A stretch of DNA of 64,000 nt from a virus (IMGVR_UViG_3300020050_013619:1-64000); one strand, 5' to 3'. Positions 4,838 through 60,385 are shown, counted from the first letter of the stretch. Translations and numbers: made by a program. The notes: generated by a model not told the origin, from the letters alone.

Positions 4838-4912
4838 TAATATTCCGTTGAAAAATAATTTTCACAAAGATATAATTAAATAATCTTAATCACAAATTTA
4901 ACATCTGTATTT
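4838..4912 (-). promoter_or_regulatory. early promoter region for the methyltransferase operon
   Basis: On the minus strand: TAAATTTG and TATCTTTG (TAnnTTTG-type -7 elements), the TGATTnnnATTATTTAAT box and the TTCAACGGAATAT leader motif. Confidence 0.5.
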
Positions 4913-4959
4913 TTAAAAAAATCAGATAATTTGCAGACAAACAAATCTGATTATCAATA

Positions 4960-5550
4960 ATGGCTGAATATATTGAATTACCGAGCAATAATCTTTACTC
5001 AAACGGATACCTAACGACACTTGACGACGGTGCTGTTGTCTTGGAGCGGAAACCCTTACGTATTGCGCCGCAAGAACAAGACCGTTGGCACATCGTTGAG
5101 TATGAGGATATGCTGGATGAATTGGCACATCGATATTACGGACAAATCGTTGACGATTCAGCTAAACTGTGGTGGATGATAGCCGATGCCAATGGACTGA
5201 CAAACCCTTTGGATTTGTCCAATAATATTGGCTCGTTGCTTTTGATTCCAGAGTATTTCAGAGTGCAACGATTGGCTTCAATTGACCAAACTGCCGATGA
5301 TACGGAACTACCCAATTACTTTCAAGTTGTTGGCAATCCACCTACGCCGATTAATCCACCAGACACACCAACCGAGGACGGTTCAGGTGTTGTTGATACA
5401 CCGTCTGAAAATGCGCCGCAATGGTTATTCTTAAAGCAGCCCAATGGAGGCTTTACGCTTGTTTCGGCTGACAATAACGGAATGCCAGAATTTACGCCTG
5501 CTAATCCGAACGATTTTGCTTCTTCGGTTATCTTTGAGGCAAAACCTTAG
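4960..5550 (+). CDS. hypothetical protein with Pro-rich C-terminal part (196 aa)
   Basis: Long ORF; NPPTPINPPDTPTEDGSG low-complexity segment. Confidence 0.45.
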   Translation: MAEYIELPSNNLYSNGYLTTLDDGAVVLERKPLRIAPQEQDRWHIVEYEDMLDELAHRYYGQIVDDSAKLWWMIADANGLTNPLDLSNNIGSLLLIPEYFRVQRLASIDQTADDTELPNYFQVVGNPPTPINPPDTPTEDGSGVVDTPSENAPQWLFLKQPNGGFTLVSADNNGMPEFTPANPNDFASSVIFEAKP

Positions 5551-5562
5551 TTTTTATCAAAA

Positions 5563-5601
5563 ATAAAAAGCCGTTATACCCCCTCAGTATAACGGCTTTG
5601 T
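5563..5601. terminator. bidirectional intrinsic terminator between convergent genes
   Basis: Stem GCCGTTATA/TATAACGGC with the CCCCCTCAG motif in the loop, followed by a T-run. Confidence 0.6.
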
Positions 5602-5615
5602 TTTTTACTCAAATA

Positions 5616-6512
5616 TCAAAACGGTAAATCCTTAGAACGAAAACCAGCCGCATTCTTATGTCCACCGCCTTTGCGACCCTCAAACTCAAATTGTGATGCC
5701 AGCTCTGCACAGTCAACAGGATTTTCCTTGTTTGCACCTTGACGCAGCGACACTTTCCAAGATTTTGTCTCATAAACATAATAAGCGAATGCCAATAAAT
5801 CGGGTTGCTCCTGGGCGTATCGTGGTGTGTTGTACCACATAGCACCATCGCCACCACCGATTGAAAGGAGTGTTTTATGACCCCGCCATTCAATGAGATT
5901 GGCAAACTTAGATTCCTTGTTGACCTGACTTTGTAAGTAGCCCAAAATGCAAACACCTTCGTGATATAGGCGCAAAACAGGAGCTTTTTCAATTGCCGCA
6001 AAATCACTTACTTTAGAGACCGCACCACGTACGGCATATTCAAAAGGCAATATTTCTGTTTCCCAATCATTTGAGCCAAAGCCATCAAACACATCATACC
6101 GACCAACCAATTCGACGAACTTAGGCTCTGTTTGATTGGGGTAGAAATACCGCCAAGTTAAACGGCACGCTGCCATTGTGCCGTACTTGATGATGCACAA
6201 GTCTTTGAGTCTGTCAAATGCTTCGTCATACGTTTTTTTGTGGTGGTCAATCCATGTCAACTGATTGAATATCGCTAATTCAACCATATCCTCCAACGGT
6301 AACGAAATATCCAGCATATAGACCAACGACCTGCGTGGAATGCTTTTGATTTCATCCAATGACCGACCGTAATCATAGCCGATTAGAACAACTTCAAAAT
6401 CAATTTCTAAAAGGGCTTTTTGGGCGATGTAGGCAGACAACAAACCGTCGTTGTCCGCATCGTGGTGAATGATATATACCTTACTCATTGTCAATAAAGT
6501 TTTTAAGTTCAA
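5616..6512 (-). CDS. DHH/DHHA1-family phosphoesterase (NrnA/RecJ-like nanoRNase or phosphodiesterase)
   Basis: Motif I IIHHDADNDG, DHH motif WIDHH, DHHA1 motif GGGHKNAAGF. Confidence 0.8.
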   Translation of the reverse strand: MNLKTLLTMSKVYIIHHDADNDGLLSAYIAQKALLEIDFEVVLIGYDYGRSLDEIKSIPRRSLVYMLDISLPLEDMVELAIFNQLTWIDHHKKTYDEAFDRLKDLCIIKYGTMAACRLTWRYFYPNQTEPKFVELVGRYDVFDGFGSNDWETEILPFEYAVRGAVSKVSDFAAIEKAPVLRLYHEGVCILGYLQSQVNKESKFANLIEWRGHKTLLSIGGGDGAMWYNTPRYAQEQPDLLAFAYYVYETKSWKVSLRQGANKENPVDCAELASQFEFEGRKGGGHKNAAGFRSKDLPF

Positions 6513-6711
6513 TAATCATTTTTACAAACTCATCTTTCATCAGTTTGATGTCGGCTGGCAGTATCCGAGCCGTACCAAACTGATTCATTTTTTGCGTTAA
6601 CTTGATGCGCGCCTCTTTGCCCAATGTGGGATACATGCGCTTTGCCAATTCCGAGCGTTTGATAAAATCGGGAATTTGCGGTTTTTCGTTCTTAGGTTTG
6701 TCCATATCCAT
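6481..6711 (-). CDS. hypothetical small protein (76 aa)
   Basis: ORF overlapping the DHH gene start by 32 nt, in the same operon. Confidence 0.35.
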   Translation of the reverse strand: MDMDKPKNEKPQIPDFIKRSELAKRMYPTLGKEARIKLTQKMNQFGTARILPADIKLMKDEFVKMIIELKNFIDNE

Positions 6712-6776
6712 AATTGAGAATATTATTTTAGCCAGCTTTTTACGGCTGGCTTTGTTGGTGAAAAAATGTATTTTAA

Positions 6777-7676
6777 TTATTGTGCGAAAATAGTCTTAGC
6801 GATTGGCTTACAAAGTTGTTTTGTTGCATACAAAGCGTTATCCGTAATTTTTCTTTGCCATGCCGAGTAAGTAGGCGACCAACGATAACCGTGCGATTTG
6901 AGTTCTTTACGTGTTTTGTCATCGGGTTTTTCATCAAATAAAATCTGAACTCTATCGGCTTCATAATTCACTTGTACCTCACCACCATCAAACTGCCAAC
7001 CTTTGACTTCACCTGATTCTTTTTGTTTTTCACGCAAAGCAATTTTGTTTTCCAATTCCTCTACACGACTTTCAAGCCTTTTGATATTGGCATTGTTATT
7101 CGTTAATTCATAGGACTGAAAACCTTTTGATTGATAGCTGTATGGCGGGTTAAGTAAACTATGTATGGTTTGTGGTTTAATACCCATTTCTGTCAATAAT
7201 TCAACCGCATTACTTTTGCGACAAATAGCGTTGATTTCTTTCATGTACTTCTGCTTGTATGAACGTCTCGCCAAATCAGTACGTGCCTTTTCCAATTCAC
7301 CATCGGGCGTTGTGGGTCTTGCCTCTCTGTTGACACGTTTGAAGAACTTATTACGCCAATCATTAAAGATATTATAGGCGTTTTCCTCCGACCGATTGGC
7401 TTTTTCCGCTTTACGTGTTGGGAACTTAGATGGTCCTGTTATCATAGACGAAAAGCAATTGCACTTACGGTGCATCCAAGCAACAAAAAGGTTTTCAAAC
7501 TTTGTCTCATAGCGAGATATGGTTTCATCATCAGCACCACCGTTACGCAGTTGTTCAATATCAGAGTCAAGCATTTGACTGTATTCGCGGACATACATTT
7601 CACCACGTTGTTCGGGTCTGAAACTTGTCCAGTAGTGCGCTCTTACGCACAATTCTAAGTGTTTTTGTAATTTCAT
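6777..7676 (-). CDS. hypothetical protein (299 aa)
   Basis: Long ORF with a central coiled-coil region; no motif recognised. Confidence 0.5.
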   Translation of the reverse strand: MKLQKHLELCVRAHYWTSFRPEQRGEMYVREYSQMLDSDIEQLRNGGADDETISRYETKFENLFVAWMHRKCNCFSSMITGPSKFPTRKAEKANRSEENAYNIFNDWRNKFFKRVNREARPTTPDGELEKARTDLARRSYKQKYMKEINAICRKSNAVELLTEMGIKPQTIHSLLNPPYSYQSKGFQSYELTNNNANIKRLESRVEELENKIALREKQKESGEVKGWQFDGGEVQVNYEADRVQILFDEKPDDKTRKELKSHGYRWSPTYSAWQRKITDNALYATKQLCKPIAKTIFAQ

Positions 7677-7744
7677 TATTAAGATATTGAAATTAGCTCA
7701 ACCATCTAAAATAGCTAATTGAGCTAAGGATAATTTAAGAATTG

Positions 7745-8602
7745 TTAAAATAAACCAGCAATGATACGATCATCAATAAATGACTTGTCAACTACATCAA
7801 CCTTGCCCAATGCTGTTTTGTAGCAATATTTATTTGCCTCGTCAACAACGGACACTATTGTACAATCACTTTCACCATTGGATTTTAGCAGTCTTTCAAT
7901 ACATAATAAAACCTTGTCGTCATCTGATTTGACCACCGCCTTAACCTTGACATACTGCGCAATCTTATCAAAATAGTAACCCCCAATGCGATTACCACCT
8001 GTATCAAAACACTCGGCATAAAACCGACCTGCCGTAATCGTGCTTTCCTTTGACAGATACGACGTGATGATTTTCTCTTTGCCCAAACGATTGACTAAAA
8101 CATAGCCTGCCGAAAGTGTTTGCCAAAATGCTGCAAACTGCTCGGCTGTTTTGATTTGCGATAAGTCAACAACCGACTCACTCACTTTCTCCGTTTTGTC
8201 GGAAACAGTTGATGGAGTGGTGGGCTTCTGTTTTTGTTTAGGGGCTTGCAAATCAGTAACAACTAACAGGATTGTTTTGAGGTCATCTGCTTTCATCTCA
8301 AAACGACCTTTATCATTTTTGGTGAAAACAGGATTGACCTGTTTAGCGGCTTTCAAAAGTGTTGCTTTGTCGCAACCAACAGGACCAACTGAATCAGCCC
8401 ACAATGAACGGTTCAATGCCGTCAACTCGTTGAAAGTAATTGTTTGCGGATTTTCAGCAACAACTGGCTCAACCGTTTTAGATTCCTCAACCCCCTCAGT
8501 AACGGCTTCTTTCTCAATCCGTTCGCGGTTCATATTGAACAGCCGTTTGGCAATTGCATTGATACCGCATTGCACAATCGGCAGTCTGTTACCCGAAAGC
8601 AA
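7745..8602 (-). CDS. hypothetical protein (285 aa)
   Basis: Long ORF, no motif recognised. Confidence 0.5.
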   Translation of the reverse strand: MLSGNRLPIVQCGINAIAKRLFNMNRERIEKEAVTEGVEESKTVEPVVAENPQTITFNELTALNRSLWADSVGPVGCDKATLLKAAKQVNPVFTKNDKGRFEMKADDLKTILLVVTDLQAPKQKQKPTTPSTVSDKTEKVSESVVDLSQIKTAEQFAAFWQTLSAGYVLVNRLGKEKIITSYLSKESTITAGRFYAECFDTGGNRIGGYYFDKIAQYVKVKAVVKSDDDKVLLCIERLLKSNGESDCTIVSVVDEANKYCYKTALGKVDVVDKSFIDDRIIAGLF

Positions 8603-8803: not shown

Positions 8804-8840
8804 TCCGTTTTTTCTTTCACAAAGATATATCTGTTTGTTT
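8804..8840 (-). promoter_or_regulatory. early promoter (minus strand) for the 8761..5616 operon
   Basis: On the minus strand: TATATCTTTGTGAAAG (TAnnTTTG) followed by AAAAACGGAATATC. Confidence 0.45.
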
Positions 8841-14082: not shown

Positions 14083-14117
14083 AAGCTTTACTCACCACCG
14101 AGTAAGGCTTTTTTTAT
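14083..14117 (+). terminator. intrinsic terminator ahead of the portal gene
   Basis: AAAGCTTTACTC...GAGTAAGGCTTT stem then TTTTTTT. Confidence 0.55.
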
Positions 14118-14179
14118 TAATAGTTGTTTTTTCGGTTCATAGCACTATATTTATTCAAATAGAAAAACAACTATCAATA

Positions 14180-16573
14180 ATGGCTTTCATTGATTATTTT
14201 AGGAGACTGAATCCGTTTAGACCATCGGAGCAAGTGAATAAGGCGGCTAATGTTGAGCAACCGAGCCAAGAAACAGGCACATTACCTGTTTTGGGCGGGC
14301 GGTCGTCTGTGTCCGACTCTCAAACAATGTTCACAGGTATCAATGGGAAAATACAGGTCAAGCCATTGTTTCCAAAGGAGTTCATTATGACTCTTGAGGG
14401 CTTATCTATTCATCATCCCGACATTTCGCACGCCGTAGCCAACATTGTTGAATTGGGTTGTACGGAACACAATATCACATTTGAGGACACAGTATCCAAT
14501 ACAGTTGCAAGAAAAGCACGTGCGCACATTGAAAGCATCAAGAAAACAATATACAACAGCGAGGGTGTAAAGGGTTTGATAACCGATTTACTGCGTCAAG
14601 CGGCTGTGTCAGGTGCTGTGAGTGCTGAAATTGTGCCGAGATTGGATTTAAAAGGCGTTGACAGTGTTGTATTGGTTGCGCCATGGCAAATCGAGTTTTT
14701 GTATAATTCAGAAACAAAGAAAAATGAAGTCTATCAACGCCCTGTTGGATTAGCCAGTTATTCGGATGGTGAAACCGATTTTGTTGGATTGATACGTTTG
14801 AATCCGATAACATTTAAGTTTTTGGTTACACAGCGCATCAATGACAATCCTTACCCAATACCACCATTCATTGCGGCTCTCGAAAATACAGGCATCGGCA
14901 AACACCTGCTTTCAGCAATTAAGCACATTGCGGAAAATTTAGGCATTTTGGGTGTTATGACTTTCTTATCAGAAGCTCCGTTGCCATTACCAGGAGAATT
15001 GCCCACGTCGCTTTCATACCAAGATAGATGTATCGCTTATCTGTCAACATGGCGAGGAGAGATAGAGAAAGGTATGAAGAACGGTATTGTCGTCGGCTTC
15101 AAAAAAGCGCACGAAATTGATGTGCATCCAACGCACACGGACGCAAAGGGGGCAAAGGAGATATTTGACATCAACGACCAACAGTTAATGTCTGCGCTCA
15201 AACAAGAACCGTCGCTGTTGGGTCGTGACATGAAGACGAGTGAGGCGTTTGCAAAAATCGCTTTCAAAATATTGGCTTCGCGGATTGGCTCTTTTCAAGA
15301 TGTGGTGGCTATTTTCCTTTCTGAACTGTATCGAATCGAGTTACAACTGAGGGGGTTTGCAATCAAGACGGTCAATGTGCAGTTTGAAAAAGTGGACGTA
15401 GCAGACAAGTTGCTGGATGAGCAAGCAGAAACGGCACGCATCAACAATGTCAAATCAAAATATGATTTTGGTATCATCAATATGCAACAGGCAGCAAATG
15501 AACTCGGCTATGAAAAACCCGACCAATTGGTGCCACGAACTGCCGCACAGAGTCCGAATACTGAGGGGGATAAAACCGCTGAAAAAAAAAAGTTAAGTCA
15601 TAACTGTTTGCATGATCCACTGAACCGCTTTGATTATGAAAGTGAGGACATCGCCAATGCGACACGTGAAGAGAGTTTATCTTTTGAGGGCGACGACTTA
15701 TTTGACGACGAAGAAATGCAAAGCCTTTATGACGAATACGTCAAGAAAGTAAAAAAGGCTTATAAGGCATCTATCACAGAGGCTTTATCGGCATTTGAAA
15801 CATCTCTTTTAGCTATTGGAGTAGCGTTGGGGGTTGATGAGTTGATTGATAAGGTTTTGTATCACTTAGCGGACAGTTTTCAGTCATCCTATTCAGAAAG
15901 GCTTAAAAACATCGTACCCAAATACATTGACAAAGGCTATAAGAAATTCAGATTAGACAGTTCGATTTTTGGTACAAAGGCAGTTGGTGAGGCGGTTTTA
16001 GAAATGCCTGATTTTAGGGCATTGGCTTATTTCAAAACGAGTGACGAATTGTATCTTGGTAAATTCATAACGGATGCCGATACACGACAACGGTTGACGG
16101 ACTTCATCAAAGAAACTTATCTAAGAGACGGTGAAGCGATAAGCCACAATCCGCAAGCCATCGCCCGATTCAGAGCGTCATTGAAAACGCAATTGTTGGC
16201 AGAAGATTGGAAAGTCAATCGCGTCATTGCAACAACGGTCAATAAGATGCGCAACTATGCCGCAGTCAATTACATGGCGCAGGCAGAAGTCAAGTGGTTT
16301 GAAATACGTGGTGTGAACGATAGAAAGCAGTGCGATTATTGTAAAAATATGCAAGGTCGGCGGTTTTCAGTCACAGAGGTAGCAGCTAAGATTGATAAAA
16401 TAGTGGGCGACTCACCCGAGTTTGTAGCGGATGATTCACCATTTGTCACATCGGTTTTTAAAACGCCAAACGATATGAAAGGCTTGACGGACAGCGAGAT
16501 GTTTGATAGAGGGATTCACGCCCCACCTTTCCATCCCAATTGCCGTGACTTAGTTGTACCTATAATTGAATAA
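14180..16573 (+). CDS. portal protein fused to a MuF/SPP1-gp7-like minor head protein domain
   Basis: 797-aa ORF immediately after the terminase region; the C-terminal EIRGVNDRKQCDYCKNMQGRRF resembles the MuF-like D-x-R...C..C...G motif. Confidence 0.55.
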   Translation: MAFIDYFRRLNPFRPSEQVNKAANVEQPSQETGTLPVLGGRSSVSDSQTMFTGINGKIQVKPLFPKEFIMTLEGLSIHHPDISHAVANIVELGCTEHNITFEDTVSNTVARKARAHIESIKKTIYNSEGVKGLITDLLRQAAVSGAVSAEIVPRLDLKGVDSVVLVAPWQIEFLYNSETKKNEVYQRPVGLASYSDGETDFVGLIRLNPITFKFLVTQRINDNPYPIPPFIAALENTGIGKHLLSAIKHIAENLGILGVMTFLSEAPLPLPGELPTSLSYQDRCIAYLSTWRGEIEKGMKNGIVVGFKKAHEIDVHPTHTDAKGAKEIFDINDQQLMSALKQEPSLLGRDMKTSEAFAKIAFKILASRIGSFQDVVAIFLSELYRIELQLRGFAIKTVNVQFEKVDVADKLLDEQAETARINNVKSKYDFGIINMQQAANELGYEKPDQLVPRTAAQSPNTEGDKTAEKKKLSHNCLHDPLNRFDYESEDIANATREESLSFEGDDLFDDEEMQSLYDEYVKKVKKAYKASITEALSAFETSLLAIGVALGVDELIDKVLYHLADSFQSSYSERLKNIVPKYIDKGYKKFRLDSSIFGTKAVGEAVLEMPDFRALAYFKTSDELYLGKFITDADTRQRLTDFIKETYLRDGEAISHNPQAIARFRASLKTQLLAEDWKVNRVIATTVNKMRNYAAVNYMAQAEVKWFEIRGVNDRKQCDYCKNMQGRRFSVTEVAAKIDKIVGDSPEFVADDSPFVTSVFKTPNDMKGLTDSEMFDRGIHAPPFHPNCRDLVVPIIE

Positions 16574-32242: not shown

Positions 32243-32300
32243 CGTCAGAGGGATTTTTTCGATATTTAGAAAGGCTGCCGTCGTGCGGTCTTTCTTTTTT
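32243..32300 (+). terminator. terminator region after the tail tube gene
   Basis: Two hairpins (GACGAAAAAATCTCGTC; GAAAGGCTGCCG...CGGTCTTTC) followed by TTTTTTT. Confidence 0.45.
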
Positions 32301-32345
32301 TGTGATTAAAATTAAATAATTTCAATCACAAAACATAAATTTAAG
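32296..32345 (+). promoter_or_regulatory. candidate promoter for the GroES-like gene
   Basis: TGTGATTAAAATTAAATAA box resembling the early-promoter box; no exact TAnnTTTG match. Confidence 0.3.
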
Positions 32346-37630: not shown

Positions 37631-38482
37631 TCAAATTATACAAGCACAGGGCTTCGGTACTTCACCAACTTTTAACCCATACTTCTTTTTTAATATTGTC
37701 ACAAATTTTTGTGCGCTTTGGTGTTCCGTTGCCTCTATTCCGTCTTGCTGCATTTGCTCAAAATAATGAGCGAGTTCAAAAAGGAATAAATTACTTGTTT
37801 CTTTATCGGTTGTTACTCGATTGACTGAATAATCCAAGTCTATTTCTAATTGTGAGGCTTCATTAAATCCTTCTCTATCATGTACAAAAGTCACGTACCA
37901 ATGGAGAATACCTCCTTTTAAACAACCTGTACAATTTGCGTGTTTCCACACTGAATATGTTAGAGGGGGTTCTATACCTATCTCACGAGTGCTGTAAATT
38001 GTTCTTTCTTTCCAAAATGCAAGCGGATAATCCGATTTATAGCCCATTCCAGATAAAATACCTACACGCCTTTTTATACGAGCTTTCTCAACTAAATCAA
38101 ACCCATAATAGACTGTCACCTGCTCACCAAACAGAGTATTAAAGTTATTGATTCTCAAATACTTGTCAAATGGTTCAGTTTTTAGTTTTGCCGTACAAAT
38201 AGCGTTACCATCTTGTGATGTAATAGCCCCCGCCTCACGACAAACATCAAATTGATTGGGTATATCATCGCCTATTAATCCTTTATGATTCTGAAATGTT
38301 ATGTCAATTCCTAAATATCTTGCCACCTCTTTTTTAAATCTCTTAATGTCGGCGTTTTCTTTTTTAGGATTTATGTCATGGTTCAGAAGAATAACATTTT
38401 CCTTTCCAAACCTGCGCGTTACCTCTATTGCAACCAACGCGGATGAGTGCCCCCCCCCCGAATAACAAACTAAATGTTTCAT
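37631..38482 (-). CDS. PP-loop ATP-pyrophosphatase family protein (PAPS-reductase/QueC-like)
   Basis: N-terminal VCYSGGGHSS resembles the PP-loop SGGxDS (His replaces Asp); C-terminal Cys pairs CTGC and CAC; first gene after a minus-strand early promoter. Confidence 0.5.
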   Translation of the reverse strand: MKHLVCYSGGGHSSALVAIEVTRRFGKENVILLNHDINPKKENADIKRFKKEVARYLGIDITFQNHKGLIGDDIPNQFDVCREAGAITSQDGNAICTAKLKTEPFDKYLRINNFNTLFGEQVTVYYGFDLVEKARIKRRVGILSGMGYKSDYPLAFWKERTIYSTREIGIEPPLTYSVWKHANCTGCLKGGILHWYVTFVHDREGFNEASQLEIDLDYSVNRVTTDKETSNLFLFELAHYFEQMQQDGIEATEHQSAQKFVTILKKKYGLKVGEVPKPCACII

Positions 38483-38496
38483 GTTTTTAACTTATG

Positions 38497-38575
38497 TTAC
38501 TTGATACTCCGTTGAATTATTTTCACAAAGGTAATTTTAAATAAATACAATCACAAATTTAACACACAGAAAAAT
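38497..38575 (-). promoter_or_regulatory. early promoter (minus strand) for the 38482..35041 island
   Basis: On the minus strand: GTTAAATTTGTGATTGTATTTATTTAAAA ... TTCAACGGAGTATCA ... ATG. Confidence 0.5.
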
Positions 38576-38623
38576 TAAAAAATCTGTAAATTGGCTTAAA
38601 TTAAATTTTACTGTCAATAGGGG

Positions 38624-39304
38624 ATGGAAGTAGTCAATCAATTAAGAGAAGCTGTACGGCAAGATGGTTTAGAGAATGCACTTGACCGTTATTACTCGGT
38701 GTATCGCGGCACGGTCGTGGACAACGAAGACCCCGAATTTCGAGGACGGCTAAAAGTCAGTTGTGTTGATGCTTACGGCAGCGAATATTTAGACGATTGG
38801 GCTTTACCGATGGGCATACCGTCGGGTGGCACAACGCTTTGGCAAATTCCATCTGTTGGCAATACGGTTTGGATTCAATTTGAATACGGTGATGTCCGCT
38901 TTCCTGTTTGGTCGTGGGGCTGGTTCAAAGACGGTAGCGCACCACAAAGCGCAAAGGTGGACGGCAATAAAATAGCGGCAACCATTTGGCAATCGGCTTC
39001 TGGTCATCGCATCGTGATGGATGATAAAAATGGTATTGTGAGCATACGCAACGTATCAGGTGATGAGATTGAAATGAGTAAAACAGGTATTGCCGTAAAA
39101 TCAAACAATATTGCTGTCGGTGGCACAGTAGAAAAAGCCGTAAAAGGTAATACCTTAACATCGCTGCTTTCTCGCTTACTGACAACAATCAGCACAGCGA
39201 CAACGGTGGACGGTAAACCTTTGAATCCTGCAACGATACAGCAATTGACACAAATTTCAACTGAATTACAAACAGTTTTGTCACAAAAAGTAACTTTAGA
39301 ATAA
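38624..39304 (+). CDS. baseplate central spike protein (P2 gpV / Mu gp45-like)
   Basis: YRGTVVDNEDPEFRGRLKVSC...WALPMGIPSGG...PSVGNTVWIQFEYGDVRFPVW is the classic gpV/gp5 OB-fold signature. Confidence 0.75.
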   Translation: MEVVNQLREAVRQDGLENALDRYYSVYRGTVVDNEDPEFRGRLKVSCVDAYGSEYLDDWALPMGIPSGGTTLWQIPSVGNTVWIQFEYGDVRFPVWSWGWFKDGSAPQSAKVDGNKIAATIWQSASGHRIVMDDKNGIVSIRNVSGDEIEMSKTGIAVKSNNIAVGGTVEKAVKGNTLTSLLSRLLTTISTATTVDGKPLNPATIQQLTQISTELQTVLSQKVTLE

Positions 39305-39690
39305 TGAATTACGCATATCTCGGAACGGCAATAAAGACCCCCCTCAGTATCTTGTCAAATGGGCGTGCTGAAACAATCGGATCAACAGAAACGGTTCGGC
39401 AAGCCATTGAACGGCTTTTGTCAACACCCAAAGGTTCTGTCTTTTTCAATCGGCAGTACGGCTGTCGTTTGGAAGAACTACTGTTTGAGACAAACGACAC
39501 GGTTCTTGCTGCTATGATTCGACAATTCATTCTTGAAGCCATCCGCGATTGGGAACCACGTGTCAAATTCTTGGACGCTCAAATCACGATTGACGACAAC
39601 ACCTGCAATTGTTATATCCGTTATCGGATATTGGCATCCAATGAGATTGATGCACTTATCTATCCATTTTACCGTACAACAAAATATTAA
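39304..39690 (+). CDS. baseplate protein gpW/gp25-like
   Basis: PLSILSNGRAETIGSTETVRQAIERLLSTPKGSVFFNRQYGCRLEELLFE matches the GPW/gp25 family pattern. Confidence 0.65.
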   Translation: MNYAYLGTAIKTPLSILSNGRAETIGSTETVRQAIERLLSTPKGSVFFNRQYGCRLEELLFETNDTVLAAMIRQFILEAIRDWEPRVKFLDAQITIDDNTCNCYIRYRILASNEIDALIYPFYRTTKY

Positions 39691-39692
39691 AA

Positions 39693-41366
39693 ATGGCAAA
39701 CGTTAATATACCCTACGTCAATCGTAGCTATCAGCAAATCAAAGAGTTTATCTTGACACGGCTTTTTGGCGTGCGCGATGACAACGGACAGTTTGTGCCA
39801 GGTGCTGGGCTTGTGCCTGAAGTAACCGACCATACGGAAAACAGTCTTTTGGTGCGCATTATTTCAGTTTGGGCAGGACTCATTGAAATGCTCAATTACT
39901 ATATTGACAATGCCAGTACCGAAACTTTCTTGGCAACGTGTCGGCGTTATCGGTCGGGTGTTTTGATTGCACGATTCTATGACTATCGCATCAAATGCCG
40001 CACGGCTGCAACTGTCAATATCACTTTTTATCTGTCGGCTGCGCACACGTCAACCGTTACGATTCCAGCCAATACCATCGTTCTGACCGCCGACGGTATC
40101 AATTTCTACACAACGCAGGATTTGGTTATTGCCATTGGCGATACGCGCGGCACGGTCGGCGCACGGCAAGCGAGTAATATTGGGTTCACGACACTTGGCA
40201 CCAGCAACGGCAAAGCCAATCAGGTATTTGAATTGGCGACGACAACGGCTTTCAATTCTGTATCTATCCGTATTGGCGGCGTATCATACGCTTCAAAAGA
40301 TACGTTTGCCTTTTCGACACCTACGGACAAGCATTTTGTCGAGACGGTGAATGAATCGGGCGTGCCAATTGTCAAATTTGGAGACGGTTACTTTGGTATC
40401 ATTCCAGCAAGTGGCGCAACGATTGAAGTATCGTATAAAACGACATTTGGGGTATTTGGTAATGTTGCGCCGTATCTCATCAATACGATTGTCTCATCGC
40501 TCACGTTACCATCGGGCATAACGGCAACTTGTTCAAATCTCAATGCCGCTTCAGGTGGTGGCGAGATTGAAAGTTTGGCAGAATTAAAACGCCGTGTACC
40601 CCTCAGTAACAGAACCCGAATGGCAGCAGTGCCAAAACAAGATTATATTGATTTGACAGAAACGTATCCATCGGTTCAAAAAGCAGGTGTTGAATACTCG
40701 TGCGGTGCGGACATCAAATTGTACATCGTGCCCACAGGTGGGGGTATTGCTTCAACGGAGTTGTTGGCAGACGTAACGACGTACATGGATGATAAGAAAA
40801 TCATGGGTCGGCGGTTATCGGTCTTACCAACTGGACAGGTGCGTATAAAGTTGGGTATTCGTTTACGGATTCGACCAGACTACAACCAAACGGCGGTGTA
40901 TGCGGCGGTCAAGGCAAAACTCACAACGTTTGGCAGTTATCTGAATCAACAGATTGGCGGCGCAATAGAATTAAATGATGTGATTGCGGAAATTGAATCT
41001 ACTGAGGGGGTGATTGTTTCGAAAGTAGATACGATGACAACGATACCCTTTGCGCGACCTTTGGGCGATTGGCAAACACTCGATTGGACAGTCGCAACGG
41101 GCGTAAACTCCAGCGAAACAGTACAGTGGAAAATCAGTTTTACAGCCGTTGACCGTTTTCAATTGTTGCGCAATGGTTCATACATTGGCACGTATGATGT
41201 CGGCGATACGGTGACACGCAATGAAATGGTTTTTACCATCAATGACGAGTACGCCATCGGTGATGAGTGGGTGTTTACGACCTATCCGTATTTTGGTTCG
41301 GTTATTTTATCGGAAATGTCGCTGCCTGTAATTTTGGAGGGGGATATTGCTTTGTCGGGTTACTGA
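39693..41366 (+). CDS. baseplate J-like (gp6/gpJ) protein
   Basis: 557 aa, immediately after the gpW-like gene; gpV-W-J order. Confidence 0.55.
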   Translation: MANVNIPYVNRSYQQIKEFILTRLFGVRDDNGQFVPGAGLVPEVTDHTENSLLVRIISVWAGLIEMLNYYIDNASTETFLATCRRYRSGVLIARFYDYRIKCRTAATVNITFYLSAAHTSTVTIPANTIVLTADGINFYTTQDLVIAIGDTRGTVGARQASNIGFTTLGTSNGKANQVFELATTTAFNSVSIRIGGVSYASKDTFAFSTPTDKHFVETVNESGVPIVKFGDGYFGIIPASGATIEVSYKTTFGVFGNVAPYLINTIVSSLTLPSGITATCSNLNAASGGGEIESLAELKRRVPLSNRTRMAAVPKQDYIDLTETYPSVQKAGVEYSCGADIKLYIVPTGGGIASTELLADVTTYMDDKKIMGRRLSVLPTGQVRIKLGIRLRIRPDYNQTAVYAAVKAKLTTFGSYLNQQIGGAIELNDVIAEIESTEGVIVSKVDTMTTIPFARPLGDWQTLDWTVATGVNSSETVQWKISFTAVDRFQLLRNGSYIGTYDVGDTVTRNEMVFTINDEYAIGDEWVFTTYPYFGSVILSEMSLPVILEGDIALSGY

Positions 41367-46279: not shown

Positions 46280-46746
46280 TTTGATTCCTCTAAAGCCAAA
46301 CCTTTTGAAATAAGACCCAACACATCAAATCGGCAGGATAAAAGGTATAAATGCACGCTCGTTGGTACTTTGATATTGCTTGGCGTTATTATCCAAATAG
46401 AACCCATATAGCCAATGCGAAGTGCTTCATTAAACCAATCATTTTCTATTGTAATCAATATAGAATTTGAGTAAACATCAAAACTGTAATCCGTTTCGGG
46501 ATAGGTTACTTCTGGGTGAATGATTCTTTTCAATACTTCAATCGCTTCATTTTTCTTCATATCTCTAATTAAACGTAAAATAGGCTTGACTACCGAGGGG
46601 TCAAAATTAGCCCGCTCACAAATCACTTTATTGGCGACAATGTCAACACCTTCAATGGTTGCAGGTGTGCCAACAGCCTTATCAGTAGAATCAAAAATCA
46701 TACATGGAAAGCCTATGTATAGAGCGAATTCAGATATTGAAATCAT
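46276..46746 (-). CDS. hypothetical protein (156 aa), first gene of the island
   Basis: ORF directly downstream of a minus-strand early promoter. Confidence 0.45.
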   Translation of the reverse strand: MISISEFALYIGFPCMIFDSTDKAVGTPATIEGVDIVANKVICERANFDPSVVKPILRLIRDMKKNEAIEVLKRIIHPEVTYPETDYSFDVYSNSILITIENDWFNEALRIGYMGSIWIITPSNIKVPTSVHLYLLSCRFDVLGLISKGLALEESK

Positions 46747-46774
46747 TAGCTTTTAATTTTCAACAAAGATAAAT

Positions 46775-46815
46775 TAAATAATTACAATCACAAAATTAAC
46801 ATCTTGAAAATCTAA
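46775..46815 (-). promoter_or_regulatory. early promoter (minus strand) for the 46746..41503 island
   Basis: On the minus strand: GTTAATTTTGTGATTGTAATTATTTAATTTA (TAATTTTG -7 element plus the box). Confidence 0.5.
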
Positions 46816-46860
46816 AAAAATCTATAAATTGACACATCTCATAATAATCTATCAATAGTC

Positions 46861-47496
46861 ATGCTTTTCAAAGATAAAATATTCAGCCTACTCGGTCCAA
46901 ACGAAAAAAGGACGGATAGTAATAAGAATTCAAGCGGCAAAGGCACGCTTGAACGCTACATGTCGGCTTTTGGCGATGATATTGATACGAATATTGTACC
47001 GCTCATCGAAAACTTGGTTCAAAACACCACCGATATAGAACTGATGTTTACACGGTTCTTAGATGTTCAAGAGGAAACGAGGGGTGTTTTACCGCTCTCT
47101 TTTTCGCGCGGCTCATCGGACGAGGAGGAACGTATCAAAGACGAGTGGATGCGTCGGCGACTGTTGCTACACATCGAAAAGATACTGGCTGTCAGAGGTA
47201 CAAAAAAAGGTTTTCAATTGCTTTTCAGATTGATTGACAGTACCATCACCGTTATCACCATCAACGAGGCTTTTTCGGAAAATTTCTACGACGAATCGGA
47301 GTTTGACGATGGATTGAAATTCGACGTATCTATTTGCTCTGAATGCCCTGTTTACTCGATTGTCATTGTATCGGATGGCACAACCGAACCAACGGACTAT
47401 ATCATCAAGTGCGCCAAATCAATCATCGCATTCAACCAGCCGATTGACGTAAAACTGGGTACAATCACATACAACGGGTTCGCCATTTCTCTATAA
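46861..47496 (+). CDS. putative baseplate wedge / tail-fibre-associated protein (211 aa)
   Basis: Resumes the late block after the island, immediately upstream of the fibre gene. Confidence 0.4.
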   Translation: MLFKDKIFSLLGPNEKRTDSNKNSSGKGTLERYMSAFGDDIDTNIVPLIENLVQNTTDIELMFTRFLDVQEETRGVLPLSFSRGSSDEEERIKDEWMRRRLLLHIEKILAVRGTKKGFQLLFRLIDSTITVITINEAFSENFYDESEFDDGLKFDVSICSECPVYSIVIVSDGTTEPTDYIIKCAKSIIAFNQPIDVKLGTITYNGFAISL

Positions 47497-52740: not shown

Positions 52741-53158
52741 AGAGATGATATTACTATCTTTATACCCAGTGCACAAAACGCAGTGGGTTATTTTTTTTTG
52801 CCTTAGGGATACGTATTATTGTAAGTTATGTGCTGCTGTTTTGGTTGGATTTTTTCTCAAAGATGTTCAATTAGATGGTTGCGTATGGCAAAAGTAGTTA
52901 TAAGCTGCTGAAAAATCAAAATTTTTTATTTACAATATAAATGATTTTTAATCAAAAAAATCGTTTTTAAGTACAATTTGATACATTTTTAACCATTTTA
53001 GATTACAAACAATCATATTTTTAACAAAAAATAAATAATTAACAAGTCTATTTTGAATGTTACTTTTTCGTTAAATCAGTCTGCCTGCTATTTTTTGAAC
53101 GGTGTGAATTATTTTTTGTTAAATTTGTGATTTTATTACAAAACTAACTGAGTTAAAA
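52741..53158. other. 418-bp AT-rich non-coding region at the late/early boundary (candidate origin or regulatory region)
   Basis: No ORF; repeated ATTTTTAA-type words; ends in an early promoter (TAAATTTG at 53120..53127). Confidence 0.4.
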
Positions 53159-53548
53159 GTGAGAGAGTTCAAACGATTTAAAGCCGAACCAAACTCGGTT
53201 CGGGCAAGGGTAAAAGTACCTTTTGTGTTAAAAAACAGGGTTGAGGTCTTTTTTCATAAATGGATTAGATATGAAAAAGGCATAAGACTTACTGATGCTT
53301 ACATCTATTGCCTACAAGAATGTATTAATTGCCACCTAAACGATGCTGATTTTTTTAACGACATTATTGGAAAGGAGCTGTATAAGGAAGATGTAACGGG
53401 CGAAGAGTCAATGATAATTCTCCCTCGTGATGTTTCAAACGGTATTGATATGCTGAAAGATGTGATGCGTTACAACAACAAGCAAAAGACAATTATCTCA
53501 TGTATTGGCGTTGGCATCACTTTGTTCGAGAAGCAAATGGCGGTCTAG
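53159..53548 (+). CDS. hypothetical protein, paralogous to 53649..54029 (GTG start in the track; start uncertain)
   Basis: Shared pattern RA.VP..L.NR....F...I.Y..I...D.Y with the downstream paralog; early promoter upstream. Confidence 0.4.
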   Translation: MREFKRFKAEPNSVRARVKVPFVLKNRVEVFFHKWIRYEKGIRLTDAYIYCLQECINCHLNDADFFNDIIGKELYKEDVTGEESMIILPRDVSNGIDMLKDVMRYNNKQKTIISCIGVGITLFEKQMAV

Positions 53549-53603
53549 TACTTGTTTTTTTTCTATTACGAGAAAAAAAATTTTGTGGTTCAGATTAAAC
53601 TGT

Positions 53604-53632
53604 TAATTTTGTGACTGAAATTAAATAAAAAA
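53604..53632 (+). promoter_or_regulatory. early promoter
   Basis: TAATTTTGTGACTGAAATTAAATAA. Confidence 0.5.
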
Positions 53633-53648
53633 AATTAAAGTCAAAATC

Positions 53649-54029
53649 ATGGTAGATACTTTTGAGGATAAAGCAACCGATAATATAGTCATAGAAAGAT
53701 TACCCGAAGAGGGTATTACAATTCGTGCGTCAGTGCCAATTCGCCTACAAAACAGGATACGGGAAAGATTTGAAGGTACAATCAAGTACGCCGAGATAAG
53801 CATACGTGATGTGTACGGCGCATTGATTCGTCGGGCATTAAATTTGCCACAAGAAGAATTTGACAACTTCGCCAATTGCGAGGATGGTGAATACAAGCTA
53901 TCCGTTGGTACGCATTTTCACATGCCGACCGATATATCGAAAGGGCTGGATAGAGTTCGTGAGGAAAGACGTATCTTGAAAAAAGAGGCGTTTTTGTTGG
54001 CTCTTAGAGTTGGATTCGCATCGCTGTAA
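53649..54029 (+). CDS. hypothetical protein, paralogous to 53159..53548
   Basis: IRASVPIRLQNRIRERFEGTIKYAEISIRDVYGALI aligns with the upstream paralog. Confidence 0.45.
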   Translation: MVDTFEDKATDNIVIERLPEEGITIRASVPIRLQNRIRERFEGTIKYAEISIRDVYGALIRRALNLPQEEFDNFANCEDGEYKLSVGTHFHMPTDISKGLDRVREERRILKKEAFLLALRVGFASL

Positions 54030-54065
54030 AAATTTGAAGATACTCTCTTAGATATTGAATTGATG

Positions 54066-54101
54066 AAAGCCGCACGTAAGATGCGGCTTTTTTTATGCCC
54101 A
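54066..54101 (+). terminator. intrinsic terminator
   Basis: AAAGCCGCACGTAAGATGCGGCTTTTTTT. Confidence 0.6.
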
Positions 54102-54178
54102 AAATAAGGTTTTCACAAAGTCACAAAAATTTATTTCATTTTTTTTCATATAACTATTGCATTGTCAAAAATAGATGT

Positions 54179-54227
54179 TAAATTTGTGACTGAAAATAAA
54201 TAATAAAATTCAACGGAATATTTAAAC
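54179..54227 (+). promoter_or_regulatory. early promoter plus leader motif
   Basis: TAAATTTGTGACTGAAAATAAATAATAAAATTCAACGGAATATTT. Confidence 0.5.
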
Positions 54228-54237
54228 AACTTTTCCC

Positions 54238-54912
54238 ATGTATAAAAATGTGTCTGAAAAATACATCAACGCCTGCGGTTCTTCAATCGCATTGGTTACG
54301 ACCAGAATAAAACAGGGTTCTGTTTTTAACCGTCATTACAGTCATGTATCAAAATCGGTAATTGAGCCAGTTGCAAACGCCATTACAGTTATCGGCTATG
54401 AATCACATGATGTGGTTTATTTCGGCGAACATGATAAAATGCCCACTATTGAGCGTCGGTACAATCTTATTTATGAGGATAATACTGAGGGGGGATTGGG
54501 TCGCACAACGGATTATACAGAATTGGTTAATTGCCCATCTTGGGTTGTGGGTATGAATTTTTCTAGTTTTTCTGATTTCCTACGCTTTTACGGTAAAATG
54601 GAATCAAACAAAGACTACGTGCGCTACGCCGATAAAATCGCTGCCTACTACACAGAAAAATTATCTGAACGCGATTGTATTGATGTTCAGTTGACAAGCC
54701 TGCAAACATGGGCTTTCAACGATAATTTTGTAAAGGGTCGTTACATCAAAAACATTATTATGGCGACTATGAACAGTGGTGATGCCGTTATTTCAGAGTG
54801 TGGCAATATCGTTCGCCGATTGGATAAATTGGGGCGATTGGATAAAATACCGCAGTTTATGGAACTGCTTGCAACCAAAATTAATATCAAATTATTCAAT
54901 GAGAATATTTGA
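54238..54912 (+). CDS. hypothetical protein (224 aa)
   Basis: ORF after a promoter. Confidence 0.45.
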   Translation: MYKNVSEKYINACGSSIALVTTRIKQGSVFNRHYSHVSKSVIEPVANAITVIGYESHDVVYFGEHDKMPTIERRYNLIYEDNTEGGLGRTTDYTELVNCPSWVVGMNFSSFSDFLRFYGKMESNKDYVRYADKIAAYYTEKLSERDCIDVQLTSLQTWAFNDNFVKGRYIKNIIMATMNSGDAVISECGNIVRRLDKLGRLDKIPQFMELLATKINIKLFNENI

Positions 54913-57670: not shown

Positions 57671-57952
57671 CGTTTTTGTTAAAATTTGACAAAAATATAT
57701 AATCATTATATTTGCACACTTGAAAAAATTATGTATTTTTGCTCACAATTTTAACACAAAATAAAAACATTGATGCTCCGCTTGAAGCTCCGCATTGATA
57801 TGTTCATGGGATTATAATTTGTTGTTGGCGGGCTTTTACGCTTTTATGTAAAAGCCCATCTTTTGAAAAGTAGCCGAACGGCTTTTAAGATAGTTTTTGT
57901 GTTTATTTGTTTTTGATTAGTCGGCGATTGCCTTTGTGTAGTCGCAAACTTT

Positions 57953-58027
57953 AGGAAAGTAGCTTAAAGGTAGAGCATGAGGTAATATATAAACCAAAGA
58001 GCGTTGGTTCGAATCCAGCCTTTCCTA
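57953..58027 (+). tRNA. tRNA-like element with a non-canonical anticodon arm (possible pseudo-tRNA)
   Basis: 7-bp acceptor stem AGGAAAG/CTTTCCT, D-arm GCTT-AAAGGTA-GAGC, T-arm GTTGG-TTCGAAT-CCAGC; 26 nt between the D and T arms do not fold into a canonical anticodon stem. Confidence 0.4.
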
Positions 58028-58189: not shown

Positions 58190-58263
58190 GGCGGTGTGGA
58201 GTAATGGTAGCTTGCCGAGGCTCATAATCTCGGAGTGTGTAGGTTCGATGCCTGCTGCCGCCA
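58190..58263 (+). tRNA. tRNA-Met/Ile2-type (anticodon CAT)
   Basis: Acceptor GGCGGTG/TGCCGCC, anticodon arm CGAGG-CTCATAA-TCTCG, T-arm GTAGG-TTCGATG-CCTGC; strong similarity to bacterial tRNA-Met. Confidence 0.7.
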
Positions 58264-58386
58264 CAAGACAACTTGATGAAAGGGGCGTACGGTTTTTTGA
58301 ATGTTGGAATGGTTTGAATTCGCTGTTTCAATTTCTTAACGAACGTGGTTAGGATAAAAAAGACTAAACGCCCCGCTTTTTAAAAT

Positions 58387-58468
58387 TGCATAGATGCAGA
58401 TATTGGTTAGCCGCGCAGAGTACATTTCTCTGTCCGAGAGGTTGTAGGTTTGATTCCTGCCTATGCAA
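58387..58468 (+). tRNA. tRNA (isotype uncertain; loop TACATTT, long variable region)
   Basis: Acceptor TGCATAG/CTATGCA, T-arm GTAGG-TTTGATT-CCTGC, anticodon stem CAGAG/CTCTG; the D-stem has an A-C mismatch and the variable region is ~11 nt. Confidence 0.45.
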
Positions 58469-58686
58469 CAACGCATAACAACAAAGGGGCTGCACGTCAG
58501 AAGTGACTGCGACAAATTGAATTGAGCGAATAGGGTTGATTGCCGCATTTAAAAGCGGATATAGTACCATCGTTGGTCTTTGGCTTTTTCTGTTTATGCC
58601 ATTGAAGCACACCAAAACAGAGGATTCAAGGCGTTTAAGGCAGCCACATAATTTTTACTATTCACCAACTATAAATTAATTGAGAG

Positions 58687-59457
58687 ATGCAACAAAAAGA
58701 CATTATCGCCTTTGACTTAGAAACAACAGGCACAGAGATTTCCAAAAGTTATATCATCCAAATAGCTTTAAAAAAGTTGAGACCAACCGAATGCGGTTTT
58801 GACATTATTTCGCAGTGGCAAACGTACATTGAACCACCTATTGATATTCCACCAATCATCACTGAAATCACAGGCATCAGCAATGAGACCGTCAAAGGCG
58901 CACCGACGTTTGCCAGCATTGCGCAAGCTTTCGTCAATAAACTGAGGGGTTGCGATCTGATGACGTACAACGCAATGTCGTTGGACCTTCCGCTTTTAGC
59001 TGAAGAGTGTGACCGTGCAGGTGTGCAGTTTTTGAAACTCAACGAATTCAGATTGGTTGATCCGTATCAAATCTTCGTAAAGAATGAACCAAGGACTTTG
59101 GCAGGTGCGGTTAAATTTTATTGCCACGATACGTTGAGCGATGCGCACGATGCCATGAACGACGTGAATGCAATGATAAAAGTATTCAGCGAACAGCGTA
59201 GTCTTTACGGACTATCTGACGATGTGGCGTATTGGGCGGCAGAATCTAAGCCAGCAACCGATAAGGATTATGCGGATTTTTCGCGTAACCTGTATTGGGA
59301 AAATGACGAGCTGTATTACGGCTTTGGTAAGAATAAGGGGTCTAAAGTGGATGACAATTTGGGCTATGCCCAATGGGTATTGAACAATGAGTTTTCCGCT
59401 TCAACAAAAACCGTGCTTCGCGCCTGGATGAAACGTAAGACACCCGAACTTTTGTAG
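58687..59457 (+). CDS. DnaQ-like 3'-5' exonuclease (DEDDh family)
   Basis: Exo I AFDLETTG, Exo II YNAMSLDLPLL, Exo III HDAMNDVNAM. Confidence 0.7.
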   Translation: MQQKDIIAFDLETTGTEISKSYIIQIALKKLRPTECGFDIISQWQTYIEPPIDIPPIITEITGISNETVKGAPTFASIAQAFVNKLRGCDLMTYNAMSLDLPLLAEECDRAGVQFLKLNEFRLVDPYQIFVKNEPRTLAGAVKFYCHDTLSDAHDAMNDVNAMIKVFSEQRSLYGLSDDVAYWAAESKPATDKDYADFSRNLYWENDELYYGFGKNKGSKVDDNLGYAQWVLNNEFSASTKTVLRAWMKRKTPELL

Positions 59458-59505
59458 TTTTTGTAGTTTAAAAATCCTATTTTATAATTTCTCAACGGAA
59501 TATCA

Positions 59506-60228
59506 ATGGCAGTTCAATTATTTGTCACCGAGGTGACGCAGCAAACCAGCGGCGGCGATGTTTTCATCACCATCCAGCACGGTACGGACAATGCCGTATC
59601 AAAATCAAAAATAAAAGCAGATATTTTCCCTTCTGAATTTTTCGGATTTATCGGCAGTATGAACGACAATTTTAAAACCATTTGCGAATTGGGCGGTGAC
59701 ACCAATTATGCCATCACAGGTTTTAAAATTCGTGATGCAAAGTCAGGCAATCAAGAGATTCAGTTCGTCGTCAATATTCGCACCGATTATATTTTCTTTG
59801 AAAATGCCAAAACGGATTGGTTGGAAATCAGAGAAATTGACACGTCGCAATTGCAAGGCGGCAACTCATCGTATCGAGAAAAAGCCCGCGCCATCAACGC
59901 ATTGATTGACAATTTCAACAATTTACAACTTCTTATCAGAGACAATATCGCTGCATGGCTTGAAATGGAAAGTGAAGAACCACAATTAAGCCTTTTCGAC
60001 ACATCTAAAACCGAGAAACGGACACGTGAACTTTTGGCGGCACATGACGAGTATATGAAAGCAAAGGATTTACCCAATCCAATTGAGCAGTTTCACAAAG
60101 AGATGCAAGAAATGTCCGACAAGAACGGCACAACAATGACCATTTCATCTAATAAAAGCACAAAGTCAGTAACGTTCAAGCCAAAAAATGATGCGGAAAC
60201 GCTTGCTGCGCAATTAAACGAGATTTAG
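59506..60228 (+). CDS. hypothetical protein (240 aa)
   Basis: Leader motif TCAACGGAATATCA precedes the ATG directly. Confidence 0.45.
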   Translation: MAVQLFVTEVTQQTSGGDVFITIQHGTDNAVSKSKIKADIFPSEFFGFIGSMNDNFKTICELGGDTNYAITGFKIRDAKSGNQEIQFVVNIRTDYIFFENAKTDWLEIREIDTSQLQGGNSSYREKARAINALIDNFNNLQLLIRDNIAAWLEMESEEPQLSLFDTSKTEKRTRELLAAHDEYMKAKDLPNPIEQFHKEMQEMSDKNGTTMTISSNKSTKSVTFKPKNDAETLAAQLNEI

Positions 60229-60259
60229 AATCACTCTCTCTCAATAACTTTTGATTTTA

Positions 60260-60296
60260 AGGCTATCCCATCAAAGGATAGCCTTTTTTATTATTT
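60260..60296 (+). terminator. intrinsic terminator
   Basis: AAGGCTATCC...GGATAGCCTTTTTT. Confidence 0.6.
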
Positions 60297-60342
60297 TTTT
60301 TAAATATCTCAAAAAAACAGTTGCGAATTAAAAAAGTTCTGT

Positions 60343-60385
60343 TAAATTTGTGATTGAAATTAAATAATTCAACGGACTATCAATA
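60343..60385 (+). promoter_or_regulatory. early promoter plus leader motif
   Basis: TAAATTTGTGATTGAAATTAAATAATTCAACGGACTATCA. Confidence 0.5.

Follow-up and report, generated by a model that had tools for sequence, protein, structure and literature searches.

The 64,000-nucleotide (nt) stretch IMGVR_UViG_3300020050_013619:1-64000 (the window) represents 64 kb of a contractile-tailed phage of ~76 kb, as judged from its called genes, and carries a recurrent element of ~27 bp, T-GTTAAWTTTG-TGAY-N6-TTAWWTAA, which we refer to as the box. Eight copies, seven of them full, lie in the window; a ninth full copy is located ~2 kb past its right end, at 13020-13046 of L029 (L numbers denote the sequences with which the window was compared), and the left 8 kb of the contig beyond the window contain no further full box. 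As had been predicted for an element restricted to gene starts, every copy is intergenic, sense-oriented and 27-67 nt 5' of an open reading frame (ORF). The copies in the window are as follows, with their scores from the position weight matrix (PWM) described below.

53118-53144, plus strand: box whose 5' core, GTTAAATTTGTGATT, is intact and whose 3' half is degenerate, upstream of a 129-amino-acid (aa) gene (53159-53548); 16.4 bits
53602-53628, plus strand: full box, GTTAATTTTGTGACTGAAATTAAATAA, with a -33 TTG at an 18-nt spacer; 38.5 bits
54177-54203, plus strand: full box with a TTG at a 19-nt spacer, kept in the relative L022; 42.3 bits
54930-54956, plus strand: full box with its 3' block in the TTATTTAA orientation; 37.7 bits
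60341-60367, plus strand: full box of perfect consensus; 42.1 bits
4876-4902, minus strand: full box in a divergent module, 4826-4962; 35.3 bits
38537-38563, minus strand: full box in a divergent module, 38483-38626; 36.1 bits
46774-46800, minus strand: full box in a divergent module, 46740-46863; 35.0 bits

The plus-strand positions of the original prediction proved exact. Its minus-strand copies also exist, although their ranges were only approximate and are replaced by the spans above, and the copy at 53118 was right as to its 5' half but has a degenerate 3' half. What had been described as a weaker copy at 32296-32320 is in fact a 36-bp palindrome (32298-32333) in which two 3' halves overlap and a proper TAnnTTTG is missing.

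The boxes at 53118, 53602 and 54177 each precede one small ORFan gene, the first two of which are paralogous. Upstream of the 53118 box, a TTG lies 22 nt from the -7 element. The 53602 box is preceded by an A/T hairpin and has an orthologue in L022 (363-389); its predicted transcription start site (TSS), 53616/7, would give a 33-nt leader to the ATG at 53649 (126-aa gene). For the 54177 box, which lies ~80 nt downstream of a terminator hairpin (54066-54094), the predicted TSS at 54191/2 would give a 47-nt leader to the ATG at 54238, the start of a 224-aa gene without a match in Pfam or PHROGs. The operon behind the 54930 box comprises a 46-aa ORF and genes for a Sak4-like protein and a PD-(D/E)XK nuclease-like protein (a weak match whose 17.8 bits fall below the curated cut-off of 22), as well as an 83-aa ORF and a gene for a DUF3127 protein. 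The 60341 box, 55 nt past a terminator (60259-60285), heads an operon encoding an HNH-domain protein (60402), a 167-aa ORF and an N6-methylase-like protein. On the minus strand, the 4876 box is aimed at a 48-aa ORF and a 593-aa DNA methyltransferase (2920-4701), the 38537 box at a PAPS-reductase-like gene (37631-38482) and an ORFan island reaching as far as 35041, and the 46774 box at an ORFan island (46746-41503) of ~15 ORFans.

We searched for relatives of the phage and found no near ones in the GenBank phage collection/INPHARED or in IMG/VR. The same phage is present in several metagenome assemblies (L001, L008, L009, L013, L014 and L019-L021), and L029 and L150 cover a 75.9-kb contig of it. 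The relatives are graded: L022 and L028 share 74-90% aa identity (74% for Sak4 of L022), the sheath proteins of L026 and L027 share 59%, and Sak4 of L016, L023, L004, L005, L010 and L015 shares ~47%.

That the box is a conserved repeat, as originally claimed, was confirmed by counts far above chance. The 21-nt consensus TTTGTGATTGNAATTAAATAA, with up to three mismatches, matched seven times in the window against 0.03 expected. Its 5' half, GTTAAWTTTG, matched nine times against 1.2 expected (eight of nine intergenic), and the 3' half, TGAYT-N3-4-WWTAWWTAA, nine times against 0.2 expected, with all nine matches intergenic although intergenic DNA makes up 8.6% of the window. A PWM trained on 13 sites, all from relatives and none from the window, scored the seven full copies at 35-42 bits, compared with a maximum of 9.5 bits in shuffled sequence; the same PWM gave 22 bits at 57749 on the minus strand, 16 bits at 53124 and 13-15 bits for the palindrome arms at 32299 and 32332. 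Chance origin is ruled out by the consensus, half-site and PWM counts when set against expectation and shuffles.

Alignment of 21 non-redundant sites from at least six phages revealed a near-invariant core, T-GTTAAATTTGTGA, behind which come Y, T/W, five variable bases and TTAAATAA. Four sites of the window have TTATTTAA, the reverse complement of TTAAATAA, in place of this final block and at the same distance. The TAAWTTTG of the box is a Bacteroidetes -7 element: all eight window copies and all 21 aligned sites read TAAATTTG or TAATTTTG and thus match TAnnTTTG (TAHHTTTG). A TTG is found at a spacer of 18-22 nt (mode 20) in 16 of the 21 sites and is missing from the three divergent window copies. 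In Flavobacterium johnsoniae, the -7 element is T-12 A-11 T-8 T-7 T-6 G-5, transcription starts 4-5 nt downstream and the mean leader is 33 nt (PMC6847099). By this geometry, TGAY would fall at about -4 to -1 and TTAWWTAA at about +6 to +13, which agrees with the earlier view of a Bacteroidetes -7 motif whose conservation runs past the -7 and across the predicted +1. TAHHTTTG occurs 26 times in the intergenic DNA of the window, and sigma-70-type matches are not enriched (67 against 50.7 +/- 7.9 expected), both of which fit a Bacteroidetes host; sigma-70-type promoters were rejected on the latter count. Given the -7 element and its TTG at 18-22 nt, the box is very probably a promoter of the -33/-7 type for the host RNA polymerase. 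A promoter for a phage-encoded sigma factor or RNA polymerase would account for the invariance of the 14-nt core, which exceeds the needs of a host -7, and for the absence of the strict box from host-type genomes. Yet the box has a perfect host -7 with TTG at canonical spacing, no sigma or RNA polymerase gene was found among the proteins scanned (many ORFs were outside the scan), and early genes would precede any phage protein unless the enzyme came with the virion. The canonical host geometry makes such an enzyme very improbable.

The three minus-strand copies are exceptions to this architecture. They have no -33 of their own, and their TTTG lies exactly 20 nt 5' of a second -7 element, TATCTTTG or TACCTTTG, followed by TGAAAAT: TATCTTTG at 4863-4872 for the 4876 box, TACCTTTG at 38524-38533 for the 38537 box and TATCTTTG again at 46762-46771 for the 46774 box. 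At that distance, the -33 and spacer of a tandem promoter both fall within the element itself. All three copies sit in paralogous bidirectional modules that are alike over ~120 bp and whose far sides face a baseplate-like gene (4960), the baseplate operon (38624) and an operon without identified function (46861). The last of these had been taken for box-driven replication genes; it lies on the opposite side of its divergent module, and no replication function was found in its proteins.

The predicted leaders are A/U-rich and unstructured. For most of the 36-nt leaders examined the folding energy is about 0 kcal/mol, and the mean z-score is -0.2, so the conserved transcribed block is not a hairpin, and an RNA hairpin in the leader was rejected on these values. 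The block would stand at +6 to +13 of every transcript, as expected of a role at the RNA level, be it a 5' stem-loop or a leader element bound by a protein or the ribosome. Apart from the missing structure, however, orthologous sites carry either TTAAATAA or its reverse complement TTATTTAA, which are equivalent as DNA but not as RNA, and detached copies occur in apparently untranscribed or oppositely oriented positions, all of which leaves an RNA-level role highly unlikely.

Orthologous boxes are kept in L022 at all three comparable positions, and also in L016 and L023. In a four-phage alignment of the Sak4-operon promoter, the -33 TTG, TGTTAAATTTGTGA, TTAWWTAAT and ACGGAATA are conserved and the spacers diverge. 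Invariance of the core among phages that share 47% protein identity, despite diverged flanks, indicates that the sequence itself is under selection and that homogenisation is not the whole explanation. These data bear on the possibility that the box is a mobile promoter or promoter-terminator cassette (PeSL-like), its identity kept by recombination or gene conversion and its copies serving as crossover points for ORFan swaps, which would be compatible with promoter function. Terminator hairpins do precede the boxes at 54177 and 60341, the window and L022 both have the box with the 224-aa gene at 54238, which L016 lacks between the same neighbours, and the divergent modules are paralogous over their ~120 bp. 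An adjacent stem-loop is found at only 2-3 of the nine boxes, however, and the invariance of the core amid diverged flanks speaks against a cassette, which we consider improbable. As a separate observation, the intergenic DNA at 54030-54240 is 94% identical to L022:783-989, with flanking proteins only 74-84% identical; this control DNA is either more constrained than the genes or was recently exchanged.

The extension beyond the -7 element belongs to this phage group and not to host promoters generally, since the strict 27-nt pattern is nearly absent from bacterial genomes: there were seven matches in the window as against two in a set of 185,579 bacterial and archaeal species, each represented by one genome. 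A metagenome collection contained 16 matches, at least 10 of which are this phage or its relatives, and a scan of IMG/VR for the 14-nt core retrieved single-copy matches only, with no contig bearing more than one copy. Literature searches on this box, on AACGGAATAT and on early promoters of Bacteroidetes phages found nothing specific.

The 3' part of the box, GTGAY-N5-TTAWWTAA, is also found without any -7 element. Besides the copies listed above, the window contains two further sites.

32298-32333, no strand assigned: palindrome TTTTGTGATTAAAATTA-AA-TAATTTCAATCACAAAA (17 + 17 nt, 36 bp), two overlapping box 3' halves with no usable -7
57728-57757, minus strand: box-like site GTGTTAAAATTGTGAGCAAAAATACATAAT (22 bits), overlapping on the opposite strand the TATTTTTGCTCAC promoter upstream of tRNA genes

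The palindrome is the fourth best inverted repeat of the window and lies between the terminator of the tail-tube gene and an operon with GroES-like (32387) and dCTP-deaminase (33775) genes. A perfect 43-bp palindrome, GAGTGATAAAAATTAAATAAT-T-ATTATTTAATTTTTATCACTC, again composed of two box 3' halves, is located at L150:17947-17989 in the same phage, at a distance of ~5 kb to the left of the window; a TAAATTTG -7 element follows 16 nt downstream, and four small genes come after it. An inverted arrangement like that of the 57728 site is also present in L016 (TAATTTTGCTCACATATTTAACA). In the relatives, the 3' half occurs near other promoters in both orientations; GTGAT...TTAWWTAA is retained and TTTG lost at L026:20571 and L005:3835, and the copy at L027:18207 is inverted relative to its neighbours. 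These detached copies suggest that the 3' part is a separable protein-binding site, and a regulator may bind it, although we rate that specific claim at a little less than even. A CRP/FNR-type site (TGTGA-N6-TCACA) was also considered and rejected: a single box has one TGTGA, and the GTGAT/ATCAC pairs of the palindromes are 20 and 33 bp apart. Near the 57728 site, tandem -7 boxes TATATTTG and TATTTTTG are found upstream of the tRNAs at 57707-57741 with a 19-nt spacer; the TTTG of the first can act as the -33 of the second, the same design as the box and TATCTTTG in the divergent modules.

Identified genes and other promoters of the window include the following.

2920-4701, minus strand: DNA methyltransferase, 593 aa
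8818-8827, minus strand: -7 element TATCTTTGTG, preceded at 20 nt by a TTTG of its own and lacking a box, promoter candidate for the island 8602-5616
9830: terminase
14180: portal
16819: protease
19003: major head protein
30237: sheath
38624-41366: baseplate genes
52382: HU-like gene
53159-54029, plus strand: paralogous genes of 129 and 126 aa, each behind its own box (27% identity, E 4e-8)
55157: Sak4-like protein

The box-driven genes encode the DNA methyltransferase, the PAPS-reductase-like protein, Sak4, the weak PD-(D/E)XK match, the DUF3127, HNH and N6-methylase proteins and many ORFans, and no box was found in the head, tail or baseplate modules of the window. Both this content and the absence from structural modules indicate that the boxes likely head an early class; being missing from head, tail and baseplate genes, the box most likely marks the immediate-early one. 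The proposal that every early operon has the box was overstated. The minus-strand island 5616-8602 has only TATCTTTGTGAAA with its own -33 (8818-8827), so not all early-looking operons carry the box, and the HU-like gene, the tRNAs and others have TAnnTTTGC promoters instead. Protein scans gave no identity for the 579-aa protein at 47527.

Of the two functions first proposed for the box, an extended early-specific promoter and an operator, the promoter is the better supported; the operator is plausible in view of the detached and palindromic 3' halves, and no regulator was found. We favour as probable a combination of the two, in which a shared promoter core overlaps the site of a phage regulator. 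The phage would then possess a family of at least nine near-identical promoters read by the host RNA polymerase with the Bacteroidetes primary sigma factor, each consisting of TTG, a spacer of 18-22 nt and (T)GT-TAAWTTTG, with transcription starting 4-5 nt past the G, straight after TGAY, and yielding unstructured A/U-rich leaders of 27-67 nt. These promoters would head short units, some bounded by terminators, of ORFans and genes for DNA modification and recombination. Beyond what sigma needs, the class signature would comprise G-14/T-13, A-10, TGAY at -4 to -1 and TTAWWTAA at about +6 to +13, and GTGAY-N5-TTAWWTAA would be the binding site of a phage-encoded protein. Because the 3' part overlaps +1, a bound protein could shut off the whole class together, and in the divergent modules, where the element covers the -33 and spacer of the second promoter (TATCTTTG), both promoters would be silenced by the binding of a single protein.

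Putative regulators that would bind the box are the paralogs 53159 and 53649, perhaps tandem ribbon-helix-helix proteins. The pair is kept in L016 and partly in L022; a search of PDB sequences was empty, and one homolog was retrieved among 5.8 billion proteins. Further DNA-binding candidates are the HU-like gene at 52382 and an HTH_17-like gene outside the window.

Several observations weigh against a combined promoter and regulator site. Neither paralog has a match in Pfam or PHROGs, and their AlphaFold2 model has a pLDDT of 41 and is not interpretable. Single boxes are not dyad-symmetric, and arm geometry differs between the two palindromes, so no simple dimer model suits both. In L028, a 90% relative, two substitutions have entered the right arm of the 32298-32333 palindrome, and L026 and L027, the 59% relatives, lack the element in this spacer. 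Between the window and L022, intergenic DNA shows 94% identity over its whole length, and this comparison cannot tell box from flanks; homogenisation of paralogous copies by recombination is possible. The term early draws on gene content only. Finally, TTTGTGA recurs in other promoters of the phage (TATCTTTGTGAAA, TAAGTTTGTGAAA), and its TGA may merely set strength for the polymerase.

The last point leads to a reading with no dedicated regulator, in which the upstream GT, TGAY and TTAWWTAA serve contacts of the host polymerase and an unstructured leader, as an extended -7, a discriminator and an initial transcribed sequence, with translation independent of a Shine-Dalgarno sequence and the class shut off by other means. 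T4 early promoters likewise carry consensus beyond the sigma elements ('uber' promoters; PMC2988021), the leaders are strongly unstructured and Bacteroidetes translation relies on such leaders (PMC6847099), TTTGTGA is present in other promoter types of the phage, and family scans of the candidate paralogs found no regulator. A promoter alone does not, however, explain 3' halves that occur without a -7, as palindromes and in both orientations near other promoters of the relatives; A/U-richness cannot explain a position-fixed TTAWWTAA, and the strict box is practically absent from bacterial genomes. We consider this reading rather unlikely, and prefer the promoter core with an overlapping regulator site.

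A more elaborate form of regulation, in which the 3' module GTGAY-N5-TTAWWTAA is the operator of a phage-encoded switch protein that shuts the early class at +1 or at the tandem -33 and spacer and activates adjacent middle or late promoters, appears doubtful, somewhat more so than the promoter without a regulator. Activation would proceed from the sites in the divergent modules and from the palindromes, acting on promoters of the form TAAATTG or TAAATTTAG ... CTATCAATA-ATG. The result would be an early-to-late switch like that of phi29 p4 on a Bacteroidetes promoter architecture, possibly through the box-driven pair 53159/53649. The likeness to phi29 is one of layout only: in the three divergent modules, a box-type promoter stands back to back with promoters of baseplate-type genes and a conserved element resembling a protein site lies between them, binding and activation being hypothetical here. 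Unlike in phi29, there is no p4 or p6 homolog, nor any sequence similarity.

Compared with other known systems, the box resembles Bacteroidetes primary-sigma (sigma-ABfr) promoters (-33 TTTG/-7 TAnnTTTG) in its TAHHTTTG match, its TTG ~20 nt upstream and its distance of 27-67 nt to start codons, but differs in being near-invariant around the -7, with GT upstream, AA/AT inside and TGAY and TTAWWTAA downstream. Like the T4 early promoters (Pe), the boxes form a large family of near-identical, very good host-type promoters that head early genes of a myovirus and have a consensus beyond the sigma elements (PMC2988021); the sigma type and sequence are different, and the extra conservation is mostly downstream of the -7 across +1, not in an UP element or extended -10, and no Alt-like modifier was found, although none was looked for. 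The PeSL cassettes of T4-type phages are also repeated early-promoter units flanking small ORFans, sometimes with a terminator just upstream (PMC2839356, PMC4122927). Here, one box-bounded gene (54238) differs between relatives. Unlike in the PeSLs, a stem-loop partner is limited to the few boxes mentioned above. As a phage signal the box is of an ordinary kind, met here in a phage group that has been little studied, and conceptually it echoes what is known of T4 and T5 without overturning it. Transcription programmes of Bacteroidetes phages are almost unstudied, and the promoter code of their hosts is non-canonical. The boxes provide a ready set of very similar natural promoters, probably strong and early, and a PWM that separates this class from others in the phage group, together with a short list of candidate operator sites and regulators. 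They should help in the annotation of related metagenomic phages and could supply parts for genetic tools in Bacteroidetes and Flavobacteria.

Other motifs near start codons were also observed. The TTCAACGGAATATC motif found near boxes is a separate element that precedes late genes too, and the TTCAACGG... run adjoining several boxes is likewise a separate motif, also present before late genes. The core AACGGARTAT of a second, stronger motif, (T/A)CAACGGA(A/G)TATCAA, has 20 exact copies against a roughly estimated ~0.24 expected, for example at 16803, 18985, 22980, 30223, 32789, 47516, 55145, 59494, 61784 and 63742 on the plus strand and at 4849, 8809, 38513 and 45559 on the minus strand. All are sense-oriented and lie 1-73 nt (mostly <40) before start codons of both late genes (protease, major head protein, sheath) and box-driven genes, a spacing too variable for a Shine-Dalgarno-like site; no match was found in the literature. 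In L026 (for example upstream of 846, 10001 and 16677) and L027 (7750, 14655), TCACTAATACTTAAT replaces CAACGGAATATCAA before head-protein, sheath and tape-measure genes. A different motif at the same positions in these 59% relatives points to a lineage-specific start-proximal motif, as if co-evolving with a phage factor.

A further motif, CT(A/G)TCAATA, occurs at 4951-4959, 14171-14179, 32361-32369, 38611-38619 and 46849-46857, directly before the ATG of the portal, GroES-like, baseplate and 46861 genes, with TTATCAATA at 4960. It follows a variant -7-like element (TAAATTG, TAAATTTAAG or GATAATTTG) at ~20-30 nt in four of these five places; at the portal gene it is only 8 nt downstream of TATATTTA. 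It is kept in L026 and L027 at the GroES-like gene and one other gene, and may define a middle or late promoter or leader class. Also at the portal gene, an 18-nt inverted repeat, TTATTAATAGTTGTTTTT ... AAAAACAACTATCAATAA, with 94% complementarity and arms 31 nt apart, spans 14114-14180 and ends at the start codon.

An Rfam scan of the window detected two tRNAs and nothing else; the second, at 57953-58027 (48.6 bits), was found by Rfam, and ARAGORN gave only tRNA-Met at 58190-58264. Just right of the window, L029:11000-11100 of the same phage contains 4-5 direct repeats, TTTTGGTCGAAAC(A/T)TGTT, inside a 369-aa ORF; these resemble iterons, and the ORF may be an initiator gene that contains a replication origin. 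Long non-coding stretches with repeat arrays, ~9 copies of GAATCAAAATGCTCG at L005:8809-9252 and ~5 copies of GGACATTTTTGTCCGTCTGA at L004:1498-1854, are probably origins.

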